A stretch of DNA of 58,680 bases from a virus (IMGVR_UViG_3300034683_000215:1-58680), one strand, 5' to 3'. Positions 17,351 through 37,642 are shown, numbered from the stretch's first letter. Made by a program: numbers and translations. The notes: generated from the letters alone by a model not told the origin.

Positions 17351-17693
17351 GTGTATGGCAAGTGCCTACACAGAACGTAAATAATAAACGCAGTTTAACA
17401 TGAAAGATAATATGAGTGATAATTTTGATATAAACGTAAAAATGCCAGTTTGGAAGAGCATAAAATTGCGTTTATTTAGTGTTGGCAACCAAAGGGAACT
17501 GTTATTAGATTTTCTTTATTGGAGAGAAAAAGAAATACACCCAGCAGACGCTAACAAAATAATAAATAACTATTTAGAGCAGAAAAAATCTAATAATAGT
17601 TGCTAACTTAAATAATAACACTAAAGATTGAAATTATGACAAAAGAAAACAAAAAAGACGAACGGGCATTTGCTATACACGGTGTTATGCCCC
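17351..17693. repeat. attC-like site interrupted by a nested cassette
   Basis: Arms GTGTATGGCAAGTGCC (17351) and GGCATTTGCTATACAC (17665), then GGT-GTTATGC. Confidence 0.7.
17400..17606 (+). CDS. Cassette hypothetical protein (nested cassette)
   Basis: Reads through the arm and GTT (LRLFSVGNQRELL); its stop TAA lies in GCTAAC. Confidence 0.65.
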   Translation: MKDNMSDNFDINVKMPVWKSIKLRLFSVGNQRELLLDFLYWREKEIHPADANKIINNYLEQKKSNNSC

Positions 17694-18040
17694 GTTATTT
17701 TTATCCAAATGGTGATGAGGTAAAAGAAAATGATATTGTGTTTTACTCCGAGAGCAAAAGCGCAGGTGATGACTTCCATTATGCAGACAGTATAAACCTA
17801 ATAGTAAAGCGAGGTAATGAATTAAAAGCAAAAGCTTTTGTGATTACGATGGATAACGCACAAACATTCCAAGATTATGAAGAACCTGAACACAATATGG
17901 TTTCTTTGGAATACGGACAGAATATGTTCAACAAAAATGGTGTGCTACCTGACTTTGAGAAAATAGGTGAATATCCAAAAGATAAAGAAATGTTGACTGC
18001 AAAATATGCCCAAGACCATTTTTGTTTTAATGGGGCATAA
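17636..18040 (+). CDS. Cassette hypothetical protein
   Basis: Starts in the attC-like loop (AFAIHGVMPR spans the arm); stop in GCATAAC. Confidence 0.75.
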   Translation: MTKENKKDERAFAIHGVMPRYFYPNGDEVKENDIVFYSESKSAGDDFHYADSINLIVKRGNELKAKAFVITMDNAQTFQDYEEPEHNMVSLEYGQNMFNKNGVLPDFEKIGEYPKDKEMLTAKYAQDHFCFNGA

Positions 18041-18096
18041 CGGTAAATATAAGAAGCGTGGAGCGTAGCGGAATGATTTTTATATATTGTTAGCTG
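18032..18096. repeat. Short attC-like site
   Basis: GCATAAC...ATATAAGAAGCGT-loop-ATGATTTTTATAT...GTTAGCT. Confidence 0.65.
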
Positions 18097-18133
18097 GCGA
18101 AGCGTACTGTTTAAAAATTTAAAACGAAATATT

Positions 18134-18352
18134 ATGTTGAAAAACTATTTACAAGATTTAGAAGAAATGAGCGAGCGTAATGCAGAATTTAGCGAGTATT
18201 ACCATATGTTATTAAATGGCATTGATGATCTTGAAGGCAATGACAAACCACTATTTGTTTATAGCCTGATGAACGCCATTAGAGATATTGGCTATGAGAA
18301 CGGAAAGCGAGCGGCAAACGAAGCAATGAAGAAATTTTTAAATTGCAGCTAA
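18134..18352 (+). CDS. Cassette hypothetical protein
   Basis: 72 aa; stop in CAGCTAAC. Confidence 0.7.
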   Translation: MLKNYLQDLEEMSERNAEFSEYYHMLLNGIDDLEGNDKPLFVYSLMNAIRDIGYENGKRAANEAMKKFLNCS

Positions 18353-18613
18353 CGGACAGGTATATGAGCCGTGCGGATTAACCTACTAACAATTGAACGA
18401 GGTACACAGTAATAATTTTAAAATATTTTTAGGGATGGAAAAAATAAAAGTAAAAATACCAGAAAAATGTAAAGATTGTGTTTACGTGAATAAAAAAGGA
18501 AATTGTTGGGCTTTGAAAGATAAATGCAACCCAAACAGTATGAATTGTGATTATAGGAAAGATGAAGAGGCGAGCTACAAACGCAAGCATGGCTTATATA
18601 CCATGTTGTAGCA
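18346..18613. repeat. attC-like site with a gene in its loop
   Basis: Arms GGTATATGAGCCGTGC (18359) and GCATGGCTTATATACC (18587). Confidence 0.75.
18435..18611 (+). CDS. Small Cys-rich protein encoded within an attC-like loop
   Basis: MEKIKVKIPEKCKDC...C...C...C; ATG 18435 is in frame with the ORF-track call. Confidence 0.55.
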   Translation: MEKIKVKIPEKCKDCVYVNKKGNCWALKDKCNPNSMNCDYRKDEEASYKRKHGLYTML

Positions 18614-18624
18614 TTGTTTTAATG

Positions 18625-18903
18625 TGCTACAACGTAAAAGTGTATGGTGTCGGTTGCACTTCAAAAACCTACTGACCTACGAACGAGTGATAAACCTCCA
18701 CGTTTACGAGCGTGGCAAAACTTAAATAAAATGAGAAGACATACACAAACGATTGAAGAATGTGAACACTGTGGAAAAGTATTTGAAGCAGGAGAAGATT
18801 ACTGGAAAGATGCACATAATAAATGCTACTGTGTTGATAATGCGTGTGGGTGGGAAGATGACGATACGAGTGACAGCAACTGCACTATACACGGTGTTAG
18901 CAA
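18625..18903. repeat. attC-like site with an extrahelical base
   Basis: GTGTATGGTG(T)CGGTTGC (18640) and GCAACTGCACTATACAC (18876). Confidence 0.75.
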
Positions 18904-18997
18904 TCCGTTAAGTTGCGATGGTTGCAAATACAACGGTACGACTAATGACGACCTTTGCGTAACTTGCGGAGATACATATAAAAACAAAGCAACTTAA
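18731..18997 (+). CDS. Cys-rich (zinc-finger-like) cassette protein
   Basis: CEHC...CYC, then SNCTIHGVSN, then CDGC...CVTC; likely start at 18731. Confidence 0.6.
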   Translation: MRRHTQTIEECEHCGKVFEAGEDYWKDAHNKCYCVDNACGWEDDDTSDSNCTIHGVSNPLSCDGCKYNGTTNDDLCVTCGDTYKNKAT

Positions 18998-19000
18998 TTG

Positions 19001-19104
19001 TTGGTAACGTTTTGCGTATATACGAGGTACGCCAAACGATAAATTTAAAATTATAAACAAATGCTTGTAGGCGTATCTTGTATATACGCTGTTAGCACCA
19101 ATAC
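19001..19104. repeat. attC-like site
   Basis: GCGTATATACGAGGTACGCC (19014) and GGCGTATCTTGTATATACGC (19070), flanked by TAAC and GTTAGC. Confidence 0.8.
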
Positions 19105-19112
19105 GGATTATT

Positions 19113-19355
19113 ATGGAAGATTTTAGATTTACAACAATAGAACCGCTTTTAACAAATGCAGACGCAATGGATTGGTTTTTAAATGAACATTTTTATGAAG
19201 TGTTTGATGAAGATGCAATTTTTCTGAATTACAATGATGGTTATGCAGAAGTGATTGATGGTAAAGGACAAAAATGGGGATTACACGCAAGTGGTGATGG
19301 TGATTTTGTTAGTCACAGAATTAGATTTGAAGCACTAACGAAGTATTGGTGCTAA
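19113..19355 (+). CDS. Cassette hypothetical acidic protein
   Basis: 80 aa; ends in GTATTGGTGCTAA. Confidence 0.7.
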   Translation: MEDFRFTTIEPLLTNADAMDWFLNEHFYEVFDEDAIFLNYNDGYAEVIDGKGQKWGLHASGDGDFVSHRIRFEALTKYWC

Positions 19356-19374
19356 AGAAAAAATAAATATAAAA

Positions 19375-25544: not shown

Positions 25545-26735
25545 TTAGATGAATTTTTTAACATAGTTAATACAGTCAGCATTTTTCTTTGAAATAACCC
25601 AACCGGGTTTTTTACCTCCCTCAAAATTCAAAAATGGATTGAACTTTGCTTTAAATTCCTTGAGCTTTCCCTTGTGTTTTTTAGTTTCGCCAAAAATCGC
25701 GAAACTTTTTTCTGAGTAATCAATTAAAACAAGTTCCTTTTTAGTAGGCAAATCAACCTCTTTAGTTGATTTTTTTGGTTGTTTTGTTTCTTGTTTCTTT
25801 GTTTCTTGTTGTTTTGTTTCCTGCTGTTTTTTTGTTTCCATATTTGTAAAGTTTAAAGGTTCAAACAAAAAAGGTTTTTCATATTCATCAAAATAAATAG
25901 TATCGACTTTACACTTTTTAAGCAAATCGAGCGAAATTCCAATACGCTCTTCAGGCCCGATGATAGGCATTATTACACCTAGTAACTCTTCGGTTATATT
26001 TACCTCCTCTACCTTAATCGGTAACGTTTCTGTATGATCTGAATTTTGCAGGTAGCACTCTTTTTTATAAATATCGTAGTAAACGACATTGAACTTTCCT
26101 ATAGATTTTAGTTCGTTTGCCCTTTTTATAATTTGCTTGATAGGCAAGGTTATTTTTTGTTTATAATATTTCGATTTTGACAAATAGGAGTCATAAACTG
26201 GCATTTTTACGCCTTGTTCATAGCACGAAAAAACAATTTCATTTAACTTAAGAAAAATACGTTTTTCGGTTTTAAAAATTTCCACCTCCTTATCAATAGG
26301 AAGCTTTAAAAAGCTTTTCAGTTCGTCTATATGAACCGAAAATTCATCGGCGAACTGACAACCCTCCCGAACCACTAAAACAGATGAATTTGTAATTAAT
26401 ATCGTACCTTCTTTGAATAAGATTGAATAATATAAAGTTTTTAGGCTTTTTGTGTTGCTAATACTAGAATAATACTCAATAAACTTTAAATCATTAGTTG
26501 TTAAGACGCCTAATTTTTTGGCGTCTGAGGGCAATAGGTTTAATTCCGGGTATTCATCAACCGAAAAGTTTAATTTTACTCCGGCAGAGAAAACGCCCTC
26601 CTCCGTGGAGGACGTTTTTTGGTAAACTTGATAGCCTAATGTATCAACGTAAACGTAACCGTTTTTTATACAATAGGTATTATCAAGCAAAGGTAAATTC
26701 TTGTTTCTCTTGCAAAGTTTTTTGATTGTTTCCAT
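25545..26735 (-). CDS. Clamp-like N-terminal region, QETKK linker and small C-terminal domain
   Basis: DEYPEL, ITNSSVL and Q.VKMPVY resemble beta-clamp modules; QETKQ/QETKK repeats; IDYSEKSFAIFGETK...GWV domain. Confidence 0.5.
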   Translation of the reverse strand: METIKKLCKRNKNLPLLDNTYCIKNGYVYVDTLGYQVYQKTSSTEEGVFSAGVKLNFSVDEYPELNLLPSDAKKLGVLTTNDLKFIEYYSSISNTKSLKTLYYSILFKEGTILITNSSVLVVREGCQFADEFSVHIDELKSFLKLPIDKEVEIFKTEKRIFLKLNEIVFSCYEQGVKMPVYDSYLSKSKYYKQKITLPIKQIIKRANELKSIGKFNVVYYDIYKKECYLQNSDHTETLPIKVEEVNITEELLGVIMPIIGPEERIGISLDLLKKCKVDTIYFDEYEKPFLFEPLNFTNMETKKQQETKQQETKKQETKQPKKSTKEVDLPTKKELVLIDYSEKSFAIFGETKKHKGKLKEFKAKFNPFLNFEGGKKPGWVISKKNADCINYVKKFI

Positions 26736-28921: not shown

Positions 28922-29218
28922 TGCTCTTATTTTTGTTGATCGTTATCGATTAATTCTGCAACTGAATATGCCAAGAGGAACATGCTAATTATAGCACCGA
29001 TTAGCCCAAACCATCCAAAAAATGATGGTTCGTCGTGTATCAATGCAACCACAAAACAAATTACGAAGGTTGCCAAATAGAATACAGGTTTCATGATTTT
29101 AATTTTAATTGGTTAACGATACAAATATAAAAAAACAATTTACGCAACACAAGTTTTTTTCAATCTTTTTTTCCTTTATCCTTGTTATTTATATTTAGTC
29201 TAAATAGCCCAAGCAAGA

Positions 29219-29249
29219 AAGGCAAGGCCTAAAATTTAGGCCTTGCCTT
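29219..29249. terminator. Palindromic hairpin / terminator
   Basis: AAGGCAAGGCCTAAA-A-TTTAGGCCTTGCCTT. Confidence 0.6.
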
Positions 29250-29510
29250 TTTGCTAACAACATTATCAACCGCCATGGCGCGGTTAATGGCTTTATATCA
29301 TACTTTTGCGCCGCCCTTTTTCGTCCTGGACTTTTTGAGGTGGGTGGGGTTTTGGGATTTTGACAGCCCCCGAGCAAACACCCCCCACTAAAAACACGGT
29401 AATACCCCCGATTGTTTATGTTTACAAATTTGTCGATGTAATTGTGATAAAATGTTTTATTTGATTTTAAGTTTAAAGTGTTTTGTTGTTATTTGGATGT
29501 TAGCCACAAT

Positions 29511-30389
29511 TTAAAAAAGATGCGGCATTACTTCTTTGATACGGTTAATCGTAAAAAATGAAAGTCGTTTAAAATCAATTGTTGGATTTTTGAACTCTTT
29601 TACAAAGTTCCAGCTTTCTTCTTTTACAAGGCAGTAAAAAACAGTATTCAAAAGTCGTGGGATCTGTTTACTACTCCAACCGTTTTCAGTCTCAATTTTT
29701 GCCAATTCCTTTTCAATTAAAGCCTTTGTTACAAACTTATTTACTATTTCTTCTTCAATAATTTTGTTTTCTTTAATCTCAGTTACATCGCATTTGGCGT
29801 GTTTTGCCTTAAATTCGTTTTTAACAATCTTTGCCCAAACTACACGCCCAAATCTGTTTTTGTAATTGTAGTTTTTAATTACAATACCTTCGCCAGTTCC
29901 TTGTCCATCTTCAATTAAGTACACATTCTTTTCTAATTGGTTTACTAATATTTCGTATGTAGGGTTCTCAATCTTGCAAATTGGCGGGATGTATTCAATA
30001 CCAAATTCATCGAGCATTACTTTATATGCCTCGTAAGGCAAATAGTTTTCGCCATCCATTACGTCAAACACATAAAAGTTATTCCAAGCCGTTTTTTGGT
30101 AAGTTTTAAGCGTATGCGGCACAAGCCATTCGCCAAATAATCGCAAGTTTGGGTATTTAGCAAAAAATAAGTAAAACATTTCTTGCTGTAAAGCCCAATT
30201 ATAAAAACCTGCATTATCGTTCTCAACTTCTAATTGCCTGTTTCGGCTACCAGCCCGTAAGCCATTTTCAAACCATAATTGAGAATTTGTTCCGTCAATT
30301 TTTGGGAATATGTAGCACATACCCATTTCAATTCCGTTTGTTTCAGTAGTTCCTAATCGTTCTACGTGTTGATACTTTGTAAATTCCAT
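29511..30389 (-). CDS. RNA ligase (Rnl2-like), cassette-borne
   Basis: Nucleotidyltransferase motifs KIDGTN, FGEW, FYVFDV, EGIVIK and AKIV. Confidence 0.85.
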   Translation of the reverse strand: MEFTKYQHVERLGTTETNGIEMGMCYIFPKIDGTNSQLWFENGLRAGSRNRQLEVENDNAGFYNWALQQEMFYLFFAKYPNLRLFGEWLVPHTLKTYQKTAWNNFYVFDVMDGENYLPYEAYKVMLDEFGIEYIPPICKIENPTYEILVNQLEKNVYLIEDGQGTGEGIVIKNYNYKNRFGRVVWAKIVKNEFKAKHAKCDVTEIKENKIIEEEIVNKFVTKALIEKELAKIETENGWSSKQIPRLLNTVFYCLVKEESWNFVKEFKNPTIDFKRLSFFTINRIKEVMPHLF

Positions 30390-30423
30390 ATTTATCTGAT
30401 TTTGTGATTAATAAAATAAAAAC

Positions 30424-30557
30424 TGTGGCTAACAATGTGTATAATTAATTGGGGTTGTAGTGCAGTTTTCAGCGTCCAACCTCGCCCCAGCGTTCGTGTA
30501 TTTTGATTGGTTCGTGCCACGTAATCCCCAACTAATCATACACGTAACGTTAGCAAT
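30424..30557. repeat. attC-like site
   Basis: GTGTATAATTAATTGGGG (30437) and CCCCAACTAATCATACAC (30526). Confidence 0.8.
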
Positions 30558-30852
30558 CAGTGTCTTGCTCACAATTTTTATAAGCTGGATTACATTCTTC
30601 ACATTTATACTCCCATTTAGCATACTGCCACTTACAATTTCCGCAATCCACCACCGCTTCGCTATTGCTAACATGCTGTATATTGCAGTTGCTATCCGTG
30701 TCGGAAGTCAACCCGGCCCACAATTCTAACATACGAACATCATATTTTAGTCGTTCAACTTCATCTCTGTTTCCAGAAGCCCTGTTTTCCATCAGCGTAA
30801 CTGTATCACGTAAATCTTTTATTACATTAATAATACTTCTCATATCTGCCAT
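30550..30852 (-). CDS. Cassette protein: coiled coil, arm-encoded linker, Cys-rich tail
   Basis: DSNCNIQHVSNS spans the arm; CGNC...CEEC tail. Confidence 0.65.
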   Translation of the reverse strand: MADMRSIINVIKDLRDTVTLMENRASGNRDEVERLKYDVRMLELWAGLTSDTDSNCNIQHVSNSEAVVDCGNCKWQYAKWEYKCEECNPAYKNCEQDTDC

Positions 30853-30940
30853 CGCACGTCTAATTTTTAAAGTTTATACTGTTATTTAAATTTGTGCTGT
30901 TTCTGTCGGCAACCGACAACATACAGCTACGACGTAGTTG
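30664..30940. repeat. attC-like site with a gene start in its loop
   Basis: GCTGTATATTGCAGTTGC (30675) and GCAACCGACAACATACAGC (30909). Confidence 0.75.
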
Positions 30941-30943
30941 TAA

Positions 30944-31207
30944 TTAAAAACTTTTCAGCATATTTTCAGCATCATCTCTGGTATTCCAACTAACTTCGCC
31001 ATTATCAAACTCTTCCACTAACTTAGAAAGAAAAGTTTTTAAATGTTCGCTTCGCCAACTAACAGCAGGTATATTCAAATTTTTTACTTGCTGTTGTGCA
31101 AAATAATCAGCTAACTCTTTATACTGAGATTGCTTTAATTTTATTCTTGTTATTGACATTTCGCCAAACTCAAAAATATGGTTTTCCCCTTCTTTGTAAT
31201 GTTTCAT
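30944..31207 (-). CDS. Cassette hypothetical protein
   Basis: KNLNIPAVSWRSE spans arm and core. Confidence 0.65.
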   Translation of the reverse strand: MKHYKEGENHIFEFGEMSITRIKLKQSQYKELADYFAQQQVKNLNIPAVSWRSEHLKTFLSKLVEEFDNGEVSWNTRDDAENMLKSF

Positions 31208-31264
31208 ATCGTTTGTGTTTTAAATTCGTAAAAAATCAAAATATACCTGCGCTACGTTGGGGGC
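31056..31264. repeat. attC-like site with a gene start in its loop
   Basis: GCAGGTATATT (31065) and AATATACCTGC (31240), then GTTGGGGGC. Confidence 0.7.
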
Positions 31265-31266
31265 AA

Positions 31267-31497
31267 TTAAAGCACTTCGCAATCACGCAAATAAAATGAT
31301 TTATGGTTATTTACACCTTCCAAATCAACAATGCAACCATTATCTTCCCATCTTGCGTAATATGCAGCTAATTGTCCATAATCAAACATTAATTTAGCAA
31401 TAATGCCATTTGGTAATTTTAATTTACTTGTTTCGTAATAAATTTTATTTCCTCTTACATCTTTTTCGCCAGTGTACAATCCTTTTACATTTTCCAT
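31267..31497 (-). CDS. Cassette protein, YopX C-terminal-like fragment
   Basis: YTGEKDVRGNKIY resembles the YopX QYTGLKDKNG.EIYEGD motif. Confidence 0.5.
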   Translation of the reverse strand: MENVKGLYTGEKDVRGNKIYYETSKLKLPNGIIAKLMFDYGQLAAYYARWEDNGCIVDLEGVNNHKSFYLRDCEVL

Positions 31498-31500
31498 TTT

Positions 31501-31686
31501 TCAATCAATTAAAAGTGCATAACAATGTATAAAATTAATGCGCTTGGTTATGTTAGTGCTTAATTCAAAGTTTACTGTTTCCTTTTGTACCTCAACATCA
31601 TTGATGTATGATTTACCATTTCTCTCTGAATAATAACCATACACCCACTTACCTTGTTTGTCTAGTCCTTTGTAACTTGTTAGCAT
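31501..31686 (-). CDS. YopX N-terminal-like fragment
   Basis: YKGLDKQGKWVYGYY...V..ETV. Confidence 0.45.
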   Translation of the reverse strand: MLTSYKGLDKQGKWVYGYYSERNGKSYINDVEVQKETVNFELSTNITKRINFIHCYALLID

Positions 31687-31906
31687 TTTTTCTAGATTTA
31701 AGGTTAATAATTGGTTTGTCTATTCCTTTGGCTCTTAATGCTGCTTGTATTTCCAGAGCCTCTTTAATGCTATCTGTATATAGTCCAGCAATATAAAATC
31801 TGTATTTAGAAGGTGGTAAATACTTTAAACTAATAAGATACACCACAAAGCAAATAAATAGGACTAATGGCAGCATATACATAATTAATATTAATATATC
31901 TAACAT
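31649..31906 (-). CDS. Hypothetical membrane protein
   Basis: N-terminal TM segment. Confidence 0.45.
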   Translation of the reverse strand: MLDILILIMYMLPLVLFICFVVYLISLKYLPPSKYRFYIAGLYTDSIKEALEIQAALRAKGIDKPIINLKSRKNANKLQRTRQTR

Positions 31907-32060
31907 ACTTTAGCCCTCCCTAAATTTGTTTTCTAATGTTAAATAACCATTCCTGACATTCATAGGTTGTATCTCCTACTTGATAGCTGAATTTTCCCAT
32001 TTTATTAATGTTTTTTGTTATTAAATCGCACTAAATATATCTGCATCCCGTTGGGGGCAA

Positions 32061-32243
32061 TTAATAGTACTCGATAACCACCACATTTATGGTGATATAA
32101 TCTTCTGAAGAGTTTGCATCCCATAATTCAGTTTTTCTAACTGTATAGGCTTTCATGTAGTCAAACTCTCCGCGCTGCTGAATAAAAACCTCTTTTTCTG
32201 GGTCTTGTTTTTTCAGCTCTTCGATTAGTTCTTTTACTTTCAT
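32061..32243 (-). CDS. Cassette hypothetical protein (MKVKELIEEL family)
   Basis: N-terminus duplicated at 33934-34008. Confidence 0.65.
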   Translation of the reverse strand: MKVKELIEELKKQDPEKEVFIQQRGEFDYMKAYTVRKTELWDANSSEDYITINVVVIEYY

Positions 32244-32352
32244 ATGGTTATAAATTGTTGTTATCAACAAGCGGAAGAACATTCGAGCATTTAATCAAGG
32301 TTAGTACGCAACGCACCATAATAAATAATTTTGCCCACCCGCTTTTGGTTTT

Positions 32353-33147
32353 TCAAACCAATTCGGGTATTTGCTCTCGTAAATATTTGTAAATTTTCCA
32401 CGTTTGTATTTTTGGTGCACTAATGCAAGGGTATAAATTTTTCCAATCTGTGTTTTTCATTAATTGCATCACTTTGGCTTTATACGTTTGGTTGTTCACC
32501 TTAATGTAAATTTCCTGTGCAAATTGTCCTACAAAGTCAACTTCTTTTCCAACATTGCCCCAAGCACACATTCCAAAATCGTAATCGGTAGGTATTGGGT
32601 AAGTTCCGTTTCTTCTATACTCCATTACTGTAACATCATTAAGCTTATAGTCAATCGGCTTGGTGTTAAGTCCTTTTTCAGGTCGCTTATAAATATTAAA
32701 GCTGCATTGTAATTTCACACCACAATATTCCACTATCGGCAGTAGTTCGCTGTAAATCATATCAAACTCATACATTTGTTGGTTGTTGTTGTACTGGCTT
32801 GCAGGTAGTATAAATGCAATGTAGTCGCCTTGCTTTACAGCTTTCTTATAAAACTTAACACTTAGTGTGTTTCGTGTTCCAAATGGTGGGTTTCCAATAA
32901 CACATCTACCTTTAAAGTATGGTAAATCTAATTCAAGGTAGTTTGCTTGCTCAATGTTTTCTGCTTCGGGTTCAATATCAAATGCAAGGTAGTTATCATC
33001 CAAGTAAGGTAAAAACGCACCCGCTCCTGCACTTGGTTCAAGCCATTCAGTTATATTTTCTTCTCCAATTACTTCTTTTGTTTTCTTCACACAATATTCT
33101 GCTAAATCGGCAGGTGTGTAGTATTTATCTAAATTTATTTTTGCCAT
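32353..33147 (-). CDS. DNA adenine methyltransferase (gamma class), cassette-borne
   Basis: KYYTP, LEPSAGAGAF, IGNPPFG. Confidence 0.85.
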   Translation of the reverse strand: MAKINLDKYYTPADLAEYCVKKTKEVIGEENITEWLEPSAGAGAFLPYLDDNYLAFDIEPEAENIEQANYLELDLPYFKGRCVIGNPPFGTRNTLSVKFYKKAVKQGDYIAFILPASQYNNNQQMYEFDMIYSELLPIVEYCGVKLQCSFNIYKRPEKGLNTKPIDYKLNDVTVMEYRRNGTYPIPTDYDFGMCAWGNVGKEVDFVGQFAQEIYIKVNNQTYKAKVMQLMKNTDWKNLYPCISAPKIQTWKIYKYLREQIPELV

Positions 33148-33205
33148 CCCTAAAAATTATTTATTATTACTTCTGTTCATTTAATCAAGTTCCGTGCTGC
33201 CGCCA

Positions 33206-33306
33206 GTTGGTAACAAGTGGTATAAAACAAAACCTCTGGTTGCTTAGTCTCATTGTTCGGGCTATGGTGGTGTCGGTTTCGATTTCATACCACAAGCCCG
33301 TTATGG
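33206..33306. repeat. attC-like site
   Basis: GTGGTATAAAACAAAACC (33217) and GGTTTCGATTTCATACCAC (33275), then GTTATGG. Confidence 0.7.
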
Positions 33307-33390
33307 TTATTATTAATTTCAGTTGTCAAGTAATCCTTTACAACTGCTTTTTTATCCGCTTCAATTCTTATACGTGGAACGTTGTGTGTA

Positions 33391-33544
33391 ATAAAAATGC
33401 TCGTCTCTCCGAGCCGTCACACCTAAGCTAACTGGTACTACATACCATAGGCGGCATTGGTTATCTCCGTTCATCCTACAGTATCACCGTTATGCGTGCC
33501 TCCCTGTGTCCCACACGCTCATCTTCTGCCACCGCATTTTTACA
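33391..33544 (-). ncRNA. Candidate structured RNA in an ORF-less cassette
   Basis: GC-rich, closed by AAAAATGC/GCATTTTT; 3' end GUGACG-GCUCG-GAGAGA-CGAGC hairpin; TATATTTG promoter at 33620-33627 on -. Confidence 0.45.
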
Positions 33545-33772
33545 TACACACAACAATGTATATAATTAATAGCGGTGTTAGTGCAATATTTTAAAGAACT
33601 ACTTTTTGTAAACTTTATGCAAATATATGAAATTCATAGCATTAAATCTGCTACTGTTCGCAAGTAGTAATAACTCGTTTCTGTGTCACCAGTTAGGTGC
33701 ATTGCTACCCACCGCTTTTTACCTTTATGTTCTTTGAGTCTTACCCACTTATACATGTATTAGCAATCATTG

Positions 33773-33988
33773 CTATAAATCAATATCAATTTTAGGCTTG
33801 TATTTACTAATATGAAAAGTTACAGGAATTGTTTTACCATCAAGGTCAAGCAACGAATTGCTAACATGCTGTAATACGGCATTATTTTTTACTACCTTTT
33901 CCTGTTCACATTCATTCCATACTTTTATTAAAGCCTCTTTTTCTGGGTCTTGTTTTTTCAGCTCTTCGATTAGTTCTTTTACTTTCAT
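33773..33988 (-). CDS. Chimeric cassette protein
   Basis: MKVKELIEELKKQDPEKE joined to NAVLQHVSNS. Confidence 0.55.
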   Translation of the reverse strand: MKVKELIEELKKQDPEKEALIKVWNECEQEKVVKNNAVLQHVSNSLLDLDGKTIPVTFHISKYKPKIDIDL

Positions 33989-34021
33989 ATGGTTAAAAAT
34001 TGTTGTTAGGCACAATAAAAA

Positions 34022-34231
34022 TTACTTACGTTCTCGTTCCAATATTTCATTCTGTTTTTCTAGCAAAGTATTTCTATACTTCAACTCTATCTGTATATTT
34101 ATTAGCAAAATGCTAATCAATATTCCAAAAACAAGCATTGTCATAAAAATAAAAAATGTTCCCATAAATCGTAATTTTAAAAGCGTACTAACCTTATACT
34201 TTGCCGTTAGCGGTAATTTTCCATAAACCAC
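34022..34231 (-). CDS. Small membrane protein (start uncertain)
   Basis: TM segment plus a short coiled coil. Confidence 0.45.
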   Translation of the reverse strand: MVYGKLPLTAKYKVSTLLKLRFMGTFFIFMTMLVFGILISILLINIQIELKYRNTLLEKQNEILERERK

Positions 34232-34473
34232 TTAACACCTGCTATAAATGCTTCCTGTTTGTCGTACCAATTTACGACAACTTCCATAGTATCTTCGTTT
34301 GTGTTATCATCATTAGATTTATCGCTATAATTTATAGCAGCAGTTTCAATTTCATTTTCGGAAGGAAAACTACCGCTAACAGCAAATAAATCCAATAACT
34401 CACTTTCTGCATCATTGAAAGATAAATCACCAGATTTAATTCTATTTAGTATTTGTTTAATTTTTTCTTTCAT
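34207..34473 (-). CDS. Cassette hypothetical protein
   Basis: LDLFAVSGS spans the arm; AFIAGVKW motif. Confidence 0.7.
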   Translation of the reverse strand: MKEKIKQILNRIKSGDLSFNDAESELLDLFAVSGSFPSENEIETAAINYSDKSNDDNTNEDTMEVVVNWYDKQEAFIAGVKWFMENYR

Positions 34474-34506
34474 ATCGTTGCTGTATTTATTTGCGTTCCG
34501 TTAAGT
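34371..34506. repeat. attC-like site at the array boundary
   Basis: GCAAATAAAT (34382) and ATTTATTTGC (34485), then GTTCC-GTTAAG. Confidence 0.65.
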
Positions 34507-34820
34507 ATTTCGTATGCTATAGCCGAAATTTTTGTAATGGTTAAGAAGTTTTTAGCCATGATGTTATAAGTTTGGTTTGCTATGTTGACATAGTCTATTT
34601 TAGCGTCTGGGTTAATGATGCCGAAAAAATCTAGGATGGCGTTAACTTCATTAAGGGATAGTAGGAATTTTTTTGCTTCATCGGTTGATTTAAACCTGTC
34701 TTTCTTTATGTGGACATAAAGATATAAAATTGCCTCATGTGCTTTAAACTCTTGGAAAGAGTTTATTCTATTTAATCTGATATAATCGGTCAGTAAGTTT
34801 GTAATATCTTGTTTAATCAT
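34470..34820 (-). CDS. Hypothetical protein whose C-terminus runs into the array
   Basis: Ends ...ILNGTQINTATI, encoded by the attC-like arm. Confidence 0.6.
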   Translation of the reverse strand: MIKQDITNLLTDYIRLNRINSFQEFKAHEAILYLYVHIKKDRFKSTDEAKKFLLSLNEVNAILDFFGIINPDAKIDYVNIANQTYNIMAKNFLTITKISAIAYEILNGTQINTATI

Positions 34821-36221: not shown

Positions 36222-37199
36222 TTAAACAGTTTTGATTATCGCTTTAAAAATTTGATATGCAACCTGGGGGACTATGGCGTTACCGTATGCTTTTAATGAC
36301 TCTTTTCTCCATTTAGAAAAGGTAATTCCGTCCAGTCTGTCGGAAAGCCCATCATCTCCGCTACAAACCGGGGGTTGAGTTGGGAAGTTTTGCCAGGAGT
36401 CTGTGCGAAGCAATGGGCAAAGGTTGCATTCTGTAATTTCGGATTTTTCCTTACCGCGCCGCTCTTGCAGCAACTCACTACTGGCGTTGGTAGAAGCGTT
36501 TTTGCTATTACCTCCTCTAGGTTGCCCTTGTTTCTGTTGGCTAACTTTACATTGCCCACAAGGTTGGAACCATTCACTTCGTTGGCTCTCGGGGTTGGTA
36601 ATAATCGGTTGTAAATAAATCCAGTTGCAACCTCCTGTGCAAGTGTGCCGCTGTTGCCCATCCGTTGTTCCTTCTTGTTTAGATTTTCCGAAATGGCATC
36701 CATTGCGCTTGGTGTTTTTAGCAACAATCCAGACCCTATCCCTTCTGTGCGGCGCGTTGACACCTGCAGCTGGAAGTATAACCGTTTGAACCTCGTAGCC
36801 TTCATTTTCCAAATCAGAAAGCACCTGCTCGAATACCACTCCCCCTCCCGAACTAAGTAGCCCAGAAACGTTTTCGCCCACGACGAATAACGGGGAAGTT
36901 TCTCTAATTGCTCTAAGCATTTCCGGCCAGAGGTATCGGTCATCTTCATTGCCTTTTCGCTTCCCGGCAACGCTGAATGGCTGGCATGGGAATCCCCCTG
37001 TGAGGATGTCAACATTTCCTCGATGTATAGTGAAGTCTGTTTTTCTGATGTCCTCATAACTAATTGTATTAGGCCAGTAGTAATTAAGCACCTTTCGGCA
37101 GAATGGGTCTATTTCGCAGTTAAATATGTTATTCCACCCCATCCATTCGGCGGCTAAATCAAAGCCACCTATCCCGCTGAATAAACTTGCATGATTCAT
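36222..37199 (-). CDS. DNA cytosine-5 methyltransferase, alpha polypeptide
   Basis: LFSGIGG, GFPCQPFS, ENV, HRRDRVW, YGNAIVPQVA. Confidence 0.9.
   Translation of the reverse strand: MNHASLFSGIGGFDLAAEWMGWNNIFNCEIDPFCRKVLNYYWPNTISYEDIRKTDFTIHRGNVDILTGGFPCQPFSVAGKRKGNEDDRYLWPEMLRAIRETSPLFVVGENVSGLLSSGGGVVFEQVLSDLENEGYEVQTVILPAAGVNAPHRRDRVWIVAKNTKRNGCHFGKSKQEGTTDGQQRHTCTGGCNWIYLQPIITNPESQRSEWFQPCGQCKVSQQKQGQPRGGNSKNASTNASSELLQERRGKEKSEITECNLCPLLRTDSWQNFPTQPPVCSGDDGLSDRLDGITFSKWRKESLKAYGNAIVPQVAYQIFKAIIKTV
36293..37057 (-). CDS. Cytosine methyltransferase beta polypeptide (alternate frame)
   Basis: Three LL(K/P)TP repeats and motif IX-like LNPRFVAEMMGFPTDW. Confidence 0.7.
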   Translation of the reverse strand: MRTSEKQTSLYIEEMLTSSQGDSHASHSALPGSEKAMKMTDTSGRKCLEQLEKLPRYSSWAKTFLGYLVREGEWYSSRCFLIWKMKATRFKRLYFQLQVSTRRTEGIGSGLLLKTPSAMDAISENLNKKEQRMGNSGTLAQEVATGFIYNRLLPTPRANEVNGSNLVGNVKLANRNKGNLEEVIAKTLLPTPVVSCCKSGAVRKNPKLQNATFAHCFAQTPGKTSQLNPRFVAEMMGFPTDWTELPFLNGEKSH

Positions 37200-37642
37200 T
37201 AAACTATTGATTTGCTTTCTCCGGTTACAGCATTGTAATAAGCCAAAAATTTTTCGGCTTGCTCCATGTAGTAGTAAGCGTCATTTCTATCTTTAAGATA
37301 GTTCTCAATATTATCTTCTATTTGTTTAATAGTAGTGTAAATTGTAACTGGCATTTTAGTTTCCATAATATCTGACACCACATTTAGGCTATTTAAAATA
37401 GTAGCATGAGCCTTCCTGTTCGTTAAATTGGCTATCTGCTCAAGTGTTAAAGATGTATATTTAAAAGCGAAATATTGAAATATTTGACGTTTATAGCGTA
37501 TGTTATCTACCCTGGAATCAATAGAAATCATATCCAAATCAAAACCAATAATAGCCGTCAAAACGTCAACAGGAATAAGTTTCTCGCTCTTTTTAAACAC
37601 TCTCCCATTAGAAACGATTGTTGATGCGCAATGATTATTCAT
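37199..37642 (-). CDS. DnaA domain IV-like HTH protein
   Basis: RQIFQY...SLTLEQIA...R.AHATILNS. Confidence 0.7.
   Translation of the reverse strand: MNNHCASTIVSNGRVFKKSEKLIPVDVLTAIIGFDLDMISIDSRVDNIRYKRQIFQYFAFKYTSLTLEQIANLTNRKAHATILNSLNVVSDIMETKMPVTIYTTIKQIEDNIENYLKDRNDAYYYMEQAEKFLAYYNAVTGESKSIV

Follow-up and report, generated by a model that had tools for sequence, protein, structure and literature searches.

A probable array of integron-type gene cassettes on a tailed phage, and its site family in Bacteroidota

Region 29499-34505 of the virus record IMGVR_UViG_3300034683_000215 (IMG/VR) is, with a probability of roughly three in four, an array of integron-type mobile gene cassettes on a tailed phage that lacks a recombinase. 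Integrons are viewed as gene-capture devices of bacteria, rare in Bacteroidota and sporadic in phages. We call the whole record (58,680 bp, with direct terminal repeats and ~36% G+C) the window. It encodes the large terminase and the portal protein of a tailed phage, several DNA methyltransferases, a dUTPase, a sliding clamp and a primase-polymerase, together with a RecT-like annealing protein, a YqaJ-like exonuclease and a NinG/Rap junction nuclease. Performing six-frame searches of the window (PF00589, PF01797, PF00239; E ≤ 1), we detected no tyrosine recombinase, Y1 transposase or serine recombinase. The array is integron-like in its working; it departs from integrons in two features, the IntI-specific domain and the orientation of the phage genes.

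Site anatomy, covariation and cassette ends

On the + strand, the junctions of the array follow one pattern: x′-(G/C/A)NTAAC, 2-3 nt, an L″ arm (..GTATAAGYAAT..), a loop, an L′ arm (..ACTRCTCATAC..), 4-6 nt usually ending in C, and GTTNNN-y. A unit on this strand reads G↓TT-x (the arrow marks the unit border), cargo, x′-AAC, 2-3 nt, L″ arm, loop, L′ arm, 4-6 nt, G. This is the attC-type layout, R″-L″-loop-L′-R′ with conserved AAC and GTT, and the same layout is found beside the integron integrase IntI at two bacterial loci (L129 and L123). Aligning 24 long-loop sites from nine sources, we obtained a 14-pair stem with compensatory changes at 12 of the 14 pairs; the two A·C mismatches within this stem are invariant.

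We built a covariance model, R1, from 27 sites, of which 26 came from other loci and one from array 1, another array of the window at 17.4-19.1 kb. R1 matched 30424-30559 on the + strand at 55.7 bits (E=1e-10), and the opposite strand at 20.2 bits. Weaker window matches, all on the + strand, lie at 33205-33310 (E=0.025), 33545-33622, 34127-34216 and 31514-31607. The better matches in the window are confined to the two arrays and fall on the strand antisense to the genes, which in array 1 is the minus strand. In fold prediction, the minus strand of site 30424-30559 forms a full hairpin, and the gene-sense strand, where the A·C mismatches become G·T, folds into the full hairpin better at 3/4 window sites. 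Since the cargo genes of the phage are antisense to the site, this better-folding strand is the coding strand.

Counting motifs says little here. GCTAAC is enriched in the window (45 copies against 24 ± 5 expected), and pairs of a GTT-10mer and its reverse complement (≤ 1 mismatch) numbered 15, which is not significant (shuffles: mean 9.3, maximum 19). Because this inverted 10-mer count does not rise above the shuffles, the motif count alone proves little and our case rests on comparison. A generic finder for AAC...hairpin...GTT was likewise noisy (466 matches vs 198 after shuffling), and it served to nominate sites before curation and R1. Curation left 72 sites, 69 of them anchored on AAC and GTT, and gave 34 neighbouring pairs.

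In these pairs, we compared the R′ behind a hairpin with the R″ ahead of the following hairpin; they were complementary at 7/7 variable positions in 11 cases and at 6/7 in 3 more. At least 6/7 was thus reached by 14/34 adjacent pairs, vs 2.1% of 4546 random pairs. The R″ and R′ around one hairpin matched no better than random (mean 2.67 vs 2.65). In one bacterial array (L144), the complementarity of cassette ends appeared in 10 of 11 pairs. Neighbours with low scores are probably separated by sites that escaped detection. A cassette start therefore pairs with the inverse core of its own site and not with that of its neighbour, which is the defining relationship of integron cassettes. Cassette ends and unit borders together place the putative crossover at G↓TT.

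Units 1-3 of the array are intact, as are the methyltransferase unit and the last one (Table 1). The complementary ends and hairpin arms listed in the initial annotation were all read in the sequence, and its cargo of RNA ligase, methyltransferase and a non-coding unit was recovered as well. The mosaic parts are 31255-32259 (R′ GTTGGGGGCAA twice, one decayed site and an orphan L′), the remnant 33296-33380, and 33555-34205.

Table 1. Features of the cassette array and its borders
Feature	Position	Strand	Details
Left array border	29499..29508	+	R′ core with cassette-specific extension GTTAGCCACA; no hairpin precedes; homology to L001, L003, X7 and X11 starts exactly here
Unit 1, RNA-ligase cassette with own hairpin site	29499..30548	+	Gene 29511-30389 on minus strand (Pfam RNA_ligase, E=7e-19); ends 29499 GTTAGCCACA and 30424 TGTGGCTAAC, complementary 10/10
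attC-like site 1	30424..30559	+	R″ 30424-30433, L″ 30437-30455, L′ 30526-30544; next unit's R′ at 30549
Unit 2	30549..30933	+	Ends 30549 GTTAGCAAT and 30664 ATTGCTAAC, 9/9; long-loop site, arms 30675 and 30908; ORF 30550-30852 (minus, 100 aa)
Unit 3	30934..31254	+	Ends 30934 GT-AGTTG (degenerate R′, GTTAG core short of one T) and 31056 CAACTAAC; R″ 31056-31063; long-loop site, arms 31065 and 31240 (33 nt, 79% complementary); ORF 30944-31207 (minus, 87 aa)
Composite/chimeric stretch	31255..32048	+	Begins at R′ GTTGGGGGCAA; ORFs 31267-31497, 31501-31686, 31649-31906 (minus); decayed site 31514-31607 (R1 10.4 bits, E=7); orphan L′ and spacer 32033-32048; neither an R″ nor an L″ counterpart found
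Second copy of R′ GTTGGGGGCAA and small gene	32049..32259	+	Gene 32061-32282 (minus), MKVKELIEEL start at 32243; no site after the unit
Methyltransferase unit	32260..33295	+	Gene 32353-33147 (minus; tblastn matches to phage N6-adenine methyltransferases, 29% identity); ends 32260 GTTATCAAC and 33206 GTTGGTAAC, 8/9, extended 12/15; arms 33217/33275; site 33205-33310
85-bp remnant	33296..33380	+	Opens with R′ GTTATGGTTAT; partnerless
ORF-less cassette	33381..33554	+	Ends 33381/33545, complementary 10/10; G+C-richer than surroundings
Decayed site	33545..33622	+	R″ and L″ retained, L′ gone; R1 17.9 bits, E=0.11
Mosaic stretch	33623..34205	+	ORF 33634-33756; ORF 33773-34015 (paralogue of 32061-32282, with embedded R″/L″ remnant 33857-33879); R′ GTTAGGCACAA at 34005; membrane ORF 34022-34231; collapsed site 34183-34205
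Last unit	34206..34499	+	Ends 34206/34364-80 (23-nt arm pair, 91% complementary; 16/17 at the ends); arms 34382 and 34480-94; ORF 34207-34473 (minus, 88 aa); minus-strand fold of the site z = -3.8
Right border	34500..34505	+	R′ GTTAAG; X3 and X7 contigs diverge after 34503-4
Resident phage gene	34470..34820	-	Last 8 to 10 codons come from the final site

The site and the open reading frame (ORF) overlap in three units (30549-30933, 30934-31254 and 34206-34499), where the ORF begins inside a loop of 100-230 nt, crosses L″ and R″, and ends near the next core. The ORFs 30550-30852 and 34207-34473 stop at the TAA of the R′ core (complement of GTTAGC), unlike ORF 30944-31207, whose stop lies ~10 nt inside its own degenerate core. 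In several ORFs, GTT-AGC is read in frame as Val-Ser across junctions (QHVSNS at 30664 and 33857; HGVSN at 18896), which suggests that such junctions inside genes could join different protein halves.

Two small genes share an 89-nt direct repeat (32182-32270 and 33927-34015, 93% identical) that covers the leader and the first 18 codons (MKVKELIEELKKQDPEKE); they differ in their C-terminal parts. We also noticed two exactly complementary 10-mers 1.9 kb apart, GTTAGTACGC at 32300 inside the methyltransferase unit and GCGTACTAAC at 34183 in the collapsed site (10/10). This pair may be the trace of an older cassette split by later insertions.

Folded as minus-strand RNA, the ORF-less cassette gave a closed, multibranched prediction with strong structure (-56.5 kcal/mol, z = -3.4), and it matched nothing in Rfam. 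Its cargo may be a small RNA gene. The window scans gave no relevant Rfam match and no tRNAs.

Array 1 (17366-19357) is the mirror image of the array at 29499-34505: its genes run on the plus strand, its sites on the minus. R1 matched it at 18998-19100 (73 bits; this site is a seed sequence of the model), 18031-18098 and 17366-17490. Its final cassette (19091-19357) has 13/14 complementary ends and no hairpin behind it.

Immediately to the left of the array at 29499 lie ~400 nt of ORF-less DNA (29100-29498), in which we noticed a perfect palindrome of 16 bp (29218-29250) and a tract rich in G+C (29300-29410). The stretch 29097-29210 was found again in an oil-field run (X5).

Unit borders and population polymorphism

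We compared Logan contigs from four sequencing runs, namely X3 (from the same study as the probable source), X5 (oil-field), X7 (sludge) and X11 (marine). The ligase unit was present at >99% identity in X11 (29499-30552, 6 differences) and in X7, which comes from another study (29499-30551, 4 differences). In these two runs it sits in unlike DNA, with no flank homology beyond GTT. Because of these unlike flanks, the moving unit extends from one GTT core to the next GTT core, with the hairpin included. From the methyltransferase unit, 32333-33285 was near-identical in X5. Near-identical cassettes occur across marine, sludge, oil-field and subsurface samples.

The contigs of the four runs break or diverge at 29499, 30550-53, 30933, 32234-50, 33378-407, 34206 and 34503-4. 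The array is polymorphic in X3, where unitigs break at 30543-53, 30933, 32234-50, 33378-407, 33901, 33997, 34206-35 and 34475-504. The depth over the methyltransferase unit was 21.7 there, vs ~90 in its flanks (about a quarter). X3 also contains the alternative joints 30553 to 30933 (depth 19.8) and 33901 to 34206, a unitig covering unit 2 (30525-30962), another hairpin arm in front of 33378, and a unitig over 34206-34504 with a depth of 111.7 and a second context. These depths are rough because they come from contigs; nonetheless, the breakpoints coincide with the predicted borders. The R1 matches and the contig breakpoints support what the initial annotation had proposed, a second cassette array of the integron type or the CALIN type (cluster of attC sites lacking integrases), mirror-oriented to array 1. 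Its description of several sites as decayed or chimeric also stands. The conclusion that the array is an older one is doubtful, as the array is polymorphic in X3.

The homology of the ligase to other phage contigs likewise begins exactly at 29499. The cassette is ~90% identical in two of them (L001 and L003), which have no other sequence in common with the 58.7-kb genome. Two further ligases (L004 and L005; 77% and 76% protein identity) carry compensatory ends (GTTAGGTGCC / GGCACCTAAC in L004), and in L015 and L017 the two ends of the window's methyltransferase cassette have homologues that flank a 56%-identical ligase. Homologous ligases had been expected to carry the same flanks. This holds for L001 and L003 (identical), L004 and L005 (compensatory), and X7 and X11 (the whole unit); it fails for many distant homologues, and R1 matches appear in only 6/50 ligase loci plus the Polaribacter phage P12002L. 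The sole and closest public-phage DNA match to the 6-kb array region is the ligase of Cellulophaga phage phi19:3 (66%). Using the generic finder, we saw no clear R1-family site adjoining that ligase, and blastn of a single site against public phages returned nothing useful.

At the right border, an array boundary had been placed at the GTTAAG at 34500, inside ORF 34470-34820. A variant protein, P0001, is 99% identical to the product of this ORF and is the same through ...AYEILNG, after which KV* replaces TQINTATI*. The ORF itself passes CTTAAC (the complement of R′ GTTAAG) into the L′ arm. Because the P0001 tail changes at this point and the ORF reads through into the arm, the abutting site supplies its tail. 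Together with the divergence of the X3 and X7 contigs, this upholds the boundary.

Mirror orientation and the recombinase linked to the family in bacteria

The R1 family is also present in other phage loci (L001, L003, L005, L015, L016 and L018) and in P12002L (L089), whose sites lie at 29.2-32.3 kb and 37.2-39.7 kb, between methyltransferase genes. One narrow motif of the family was found in 92 IMG/VR stretches and in 36 stretches of GTDB genomes, mostly Bacteroidota. Among 151 sampled Bacteroidota genomes, 36 were R1-positive. The L144 array contains 12 sites at E ≤ 0.05 within 16 kb. The cargo of the bacterial arrays includes an Abi_C protein, an AAA_21 ATPase, an esterase, a nitroreductase and a mercuric-reductase-like protein.

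Each of the two P12002L arrays directly follows a copy of the same ~75-nt stretch (29160-29235 and 37190-37270), ending ...TTTTATCCGTT↓GTTA. This stretch may be a repeated docking sequence. A docking sequence common to the arrays was considered and set aside, as TTGATTTTAAGT occurs upstream of the window array and the P12002L arrays only and is absent from other arrays.

We checked the orientation of the ORFs flanking the sites. In the window, 7 lay on the strand opposite to the site and 0 shared its strand. A first set of viral loci gave 38 opposite ORFs against a single same-strand one. In a second, independent set, 80 viral loci from the 92 stretches contained 83 sites, of which 75 had opposite-only neighbours, 2 same-only, 4 mixed and 2 none. 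The four bacterial arrays gave the reverse picture, with 44 flanking ORFs on the same strand and 1 opposite. Phage cargo genes are thus antisense to the sites and bacterial ones lie on the same strand, and this orientation rule separates two kinds of array. Loci on genome contigs were divided, with 12 opposite, 11 same-strand, 8 mixed and 5 without neighbours; short contigs of metagenome-assembled genomes, which may be viral, account for many of the 12.

A 379-aa tyrosine recombinase lies beside both Mariniflexile arrays. After the orientation count and the comparison of recombinases, we dropped the idea that these arrays are prophages with a phage integrase. Homologues of the enzyme without the integron-specific insertion lie 0.8-9 kb from the first R1 site in four genomes, G006 (twice), G054, G078 and G091; those of the last three share 39-45% identity with the 379-aa recombinase and lie 0.8-4 kb from the first site. 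In G108, a 48-aa recombinase stump lies beside the array. Aligned to three canonical integrases, the linked recombinases lack the block containing KYP...W.WQ..FP, and the recombinases beside bacterial R1 arrays score under the TIGR02249 cut-off. In the 151-genome sample (homologue threshold E ≤ 1e-35), a homologue was present in 25/36 R1-positive vs 39/115 R1-negative genomes. In 15 of these 36 R1-positive genomes, the homologue and the sites were linked on one contig at a distance within 20 kb.

At three of the bacterial loci (L250, L252 and L253), ~90 nt adjoining the start of the recombinase gene are conserved through ...CTCTGTT↓GTT and are followed by differing first cassettes, as at attI. 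The head of the window array, ...TTATTTGGAT↓GTTAGCC, resembles the attI-like end of L244, over 8-9 nt only. Comparing five array-bearing phage genomes by BLASTP, we found no family common to all of them except the ligase used to select them; NinG/Rap is common to the window and P12002L only. Most likely, the enzyme acting on the phage sites would be the Xer-like relative of integron integrases that lies beside Bacteroidota arrays of the same family and lacks the integron-specific insertion. Smyshlyaev et al. 2021 describe the insertion as 'not fully conserved' in the integron-like recombinase subgroup that they define.

Alternative explanations, proposed mechanism and meaning

Several observations weigh against a cassette array of the integron type. 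The phage encodes no recombinase, and no IntI with the specific insertion lies next to the array. Several window units are decayed, chimeric or site-less, and the three hairpins whose loops of 100-230 nt contain gene starts are longer than a textbook attC. No empty site was found: our search of viral contigs returned no relative of ORF 34470-34820 or ORF 25545-26735, and a search of 5.8 billion proteins gave one near-identical cluster only, so the empty-site relatives anticipated by the initial annotation did not turn up. In bacteria, 21 of the 36 R1-positive genomes have no linked recombinase homologue, and 5 of 11 examined array-flanking stretches have none, possibly as the wrong side was examined. 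In G026, an R1 array lies 4 kb from a canonical integron integrase, whose C-terminal conserved block is seemingly broken. Lastly, the ~90%-identical ligase copies in L001 and L003 carry hairpins that differ from that of the window. Either the hairpin was replaced over time or crossovers also occur on the R″ side, and the strict integron model predicts neither.

We consider it unlikely that the array is an ordinary CALIN, with true attC sites and cassettes moved by a canonical host IntI during infection of integron-bearing hosts. In its favour, IntI above the curated TIGR02249 cut-off is found in 113/401 sampled Bacteroidota genomes. The layout R″-spacer-L″...L′-spacer-R′, along with the spacer asymmetry, is shared by the attC sites next to IntI at L129 and L123, and the R1 sites of G026 lie 4-6.5 kb from its IntI gene. 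IntI1 has also been reported to recombine one P12002L site, P12002L_attC2, with attI1 (Qi et al. 2023, PMC9892861), a result that equally favours the integron-type reading; on the accessible text of that paper, this site is not placed among the R1-family sites of P12002L. The sites beside IntI in L123 and L129 differ from the site family of the phage. Against this explanation, IntI is not associated with the family (13/36 R1-positive vs 39/115 R1-negative genomes), and it is physically linked to sites in 1/36 genomes, vs 15/36 for the insertion-less clade. Among 12 loci around IntI genes, one had weak R1 matches and none had strong ones, and 0/5 site-bearing genomes had an IntI over the cut-off.

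The remaining explanations take the hairpins for something other than attC-like sites. They could be regulatory elements of RNA or DNA (terminators, processing sites or promoters), with the genes shuffled by homologous recombination through the RecT-like protein and the YqaJ-like exonuclease, in the manner of promoter early stem-loop (PeSL) elements. The stems on the coding strand do fold well with G·U-compatible positions, one hairpin precedes each gene, hairpins are homogenised within a genome (both L003 ligase flanks are nearly identical), and 90%-identical ligase copies differ in their hairpins. Shuffling of this kind leaves unexplained why the ends are cassette-specific and complementary and why the two flanks of one hairpin are not, and near-identical units lie in flanks without homology beyond GTT. 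A transcript-level element should moreover hold one orientation, whereas these sites run along with the genes in bacteria and against them in phages. The stem pairs are also almost all Watson-Crick. We rate this explanation as very improbable. Least credible to us are double-stranded Xer/dif modules of the pdif type, in which housekeeping XerC/D would act on 28-bp sites with one variable and one conserved arm. Xer is present in every host and resembles the linked recombinase; R-arm-bounded and L-arm-bounded modules alternate, and gene starts lie in some of those with L arms. The covariation of 12/14 stem pairs and of the 10-bp ends points to base pairing, not to recognition by protein only. 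Near-identical copies have their borders solely at R′ cores, and on duplex DNA the inverted sites flanking a cargo would invert it, not excise it.

The integron-type reading agrees with integrons and CALINs in its imperfect palindromes with invariant AAC...GTT, its asymmetric R-L spacer and variable loop, its cassette starts complementary to the inverse core of their own site, its units running from G↓TT to G↓TT, and its integrase-less arrays. Bacteroidota bacteria also have a comparable platform, where the recombinase adjoins a conserved attI-like junction and the first cassette varies. Unlike in integrons, the recombinase linked to the R1 family has no IntI-specific insertion. The R1 stem is longer, with two conserved A·C mismatches in place of bulged bases, the R-box pairing spans 9-10 bp, and some loops contain gene starts. 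The phage-array genes are antisense to the sites, where integron cassettes are co-oriented with the attC top strand.

Related mobile modules differ in other ways. The PeSLs of T4-type phages are repeats of a promoter and a stem-loop, for which homologous recombination has been proposed. They resemble the present array in that small accessory genes lie in plastic phage regions with repeated stem-loops between; neither cassette-specific complementary ends nor AAC/GTT cores are known from them. The window units do not follow exchange through homology within repeats, given their near-identical copies in non-homologous flanks and their cassette-specific ends. The pdif modules of Acinetobacter plasmids are gene modules bounded by inverted recombinase sites, and the CTX phage uses a host Xer-type enzyme in trans on a folded single-stranded site. 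In the R1 family, unlike in these two, both arms covary as stems, serial cassettes are bounded at G↓TT, and a dedicated recombinase gene adjoins the bacterial arrays.

CALINs in virulent phages have already been published, including P12002L with two predicted sites 'with divergent directions' (Qi et al. 2023, PMC9892861). P12002L resembles the present phage as a lytic-type phage of Flavobacteriia-like hosts with methyltransferase genes between attC-type sites of the same family. The accessible text of that paper describes no family, mirror orientation, cassette-end signature or alternative recombinase. In full-text literature searches, we found no published description of the site family, the mirror orientation or the insertion-less platform; the supplementary tables of Qi et al. 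2023 may hold more. According to Neron et al. 2022 (PMC9024848), Bacteroidetes have mostly In0 and very few complete integrons. Our count of IntI in 113/401 genomes is far above this near-integron-free picture.

We propose the following mechanism for the integron-type array. Single-stranded DNA from phage replication or from RecT/exonuclease recombination would fold into the hairpin, with the coding strand as the probable active strand. A host tyrosine recombinase, acting in trans, would exchange one strand at G↓TT, and replication would resolve the product. The 9-10 nt pairing of unit starts is the mark that a circular one-site cassette leaves on insertion at G↓TT. Cassettes would be gained, lost and swapped among co-infecting phages, and perhaps exchanged with host arrays too. 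The cargo (adenine methyltransferase, RNA ligase, small proteins and a structured ORF-less unit) fits accessory or counter-defence roles.

Three further claims we advance together and tentatively, at somewhat short of an even chance. Bacteroidota phages would maintain a mirror cassette pool of their own, served by a sister integron system whose recombinase lacks the integron-specific domain. Transcription and lagging-strand synthesis would expose the coding strand and speed exchange. Host defence and adaptive genes and phage cargo would share one platform, largely missed by standard surveys.

One site family is common to many phage contigs and to ~1/4 of the sampled Bacteroidota genomes, and its linked recombinase lacks a domain thought essential for attC recognition. 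Our findings suggest that Bacteroidota phages trade accessory genes through the gene-capture machinery of their hosts. If true, the system would offer a tractable case for the evolution of folded-DNA recombination from Xer-type enzymes and would suggest a route for trading counter-defence genes among lytic phages. R1 sites would then be a ready marker for phage accessory genes of unknown function.

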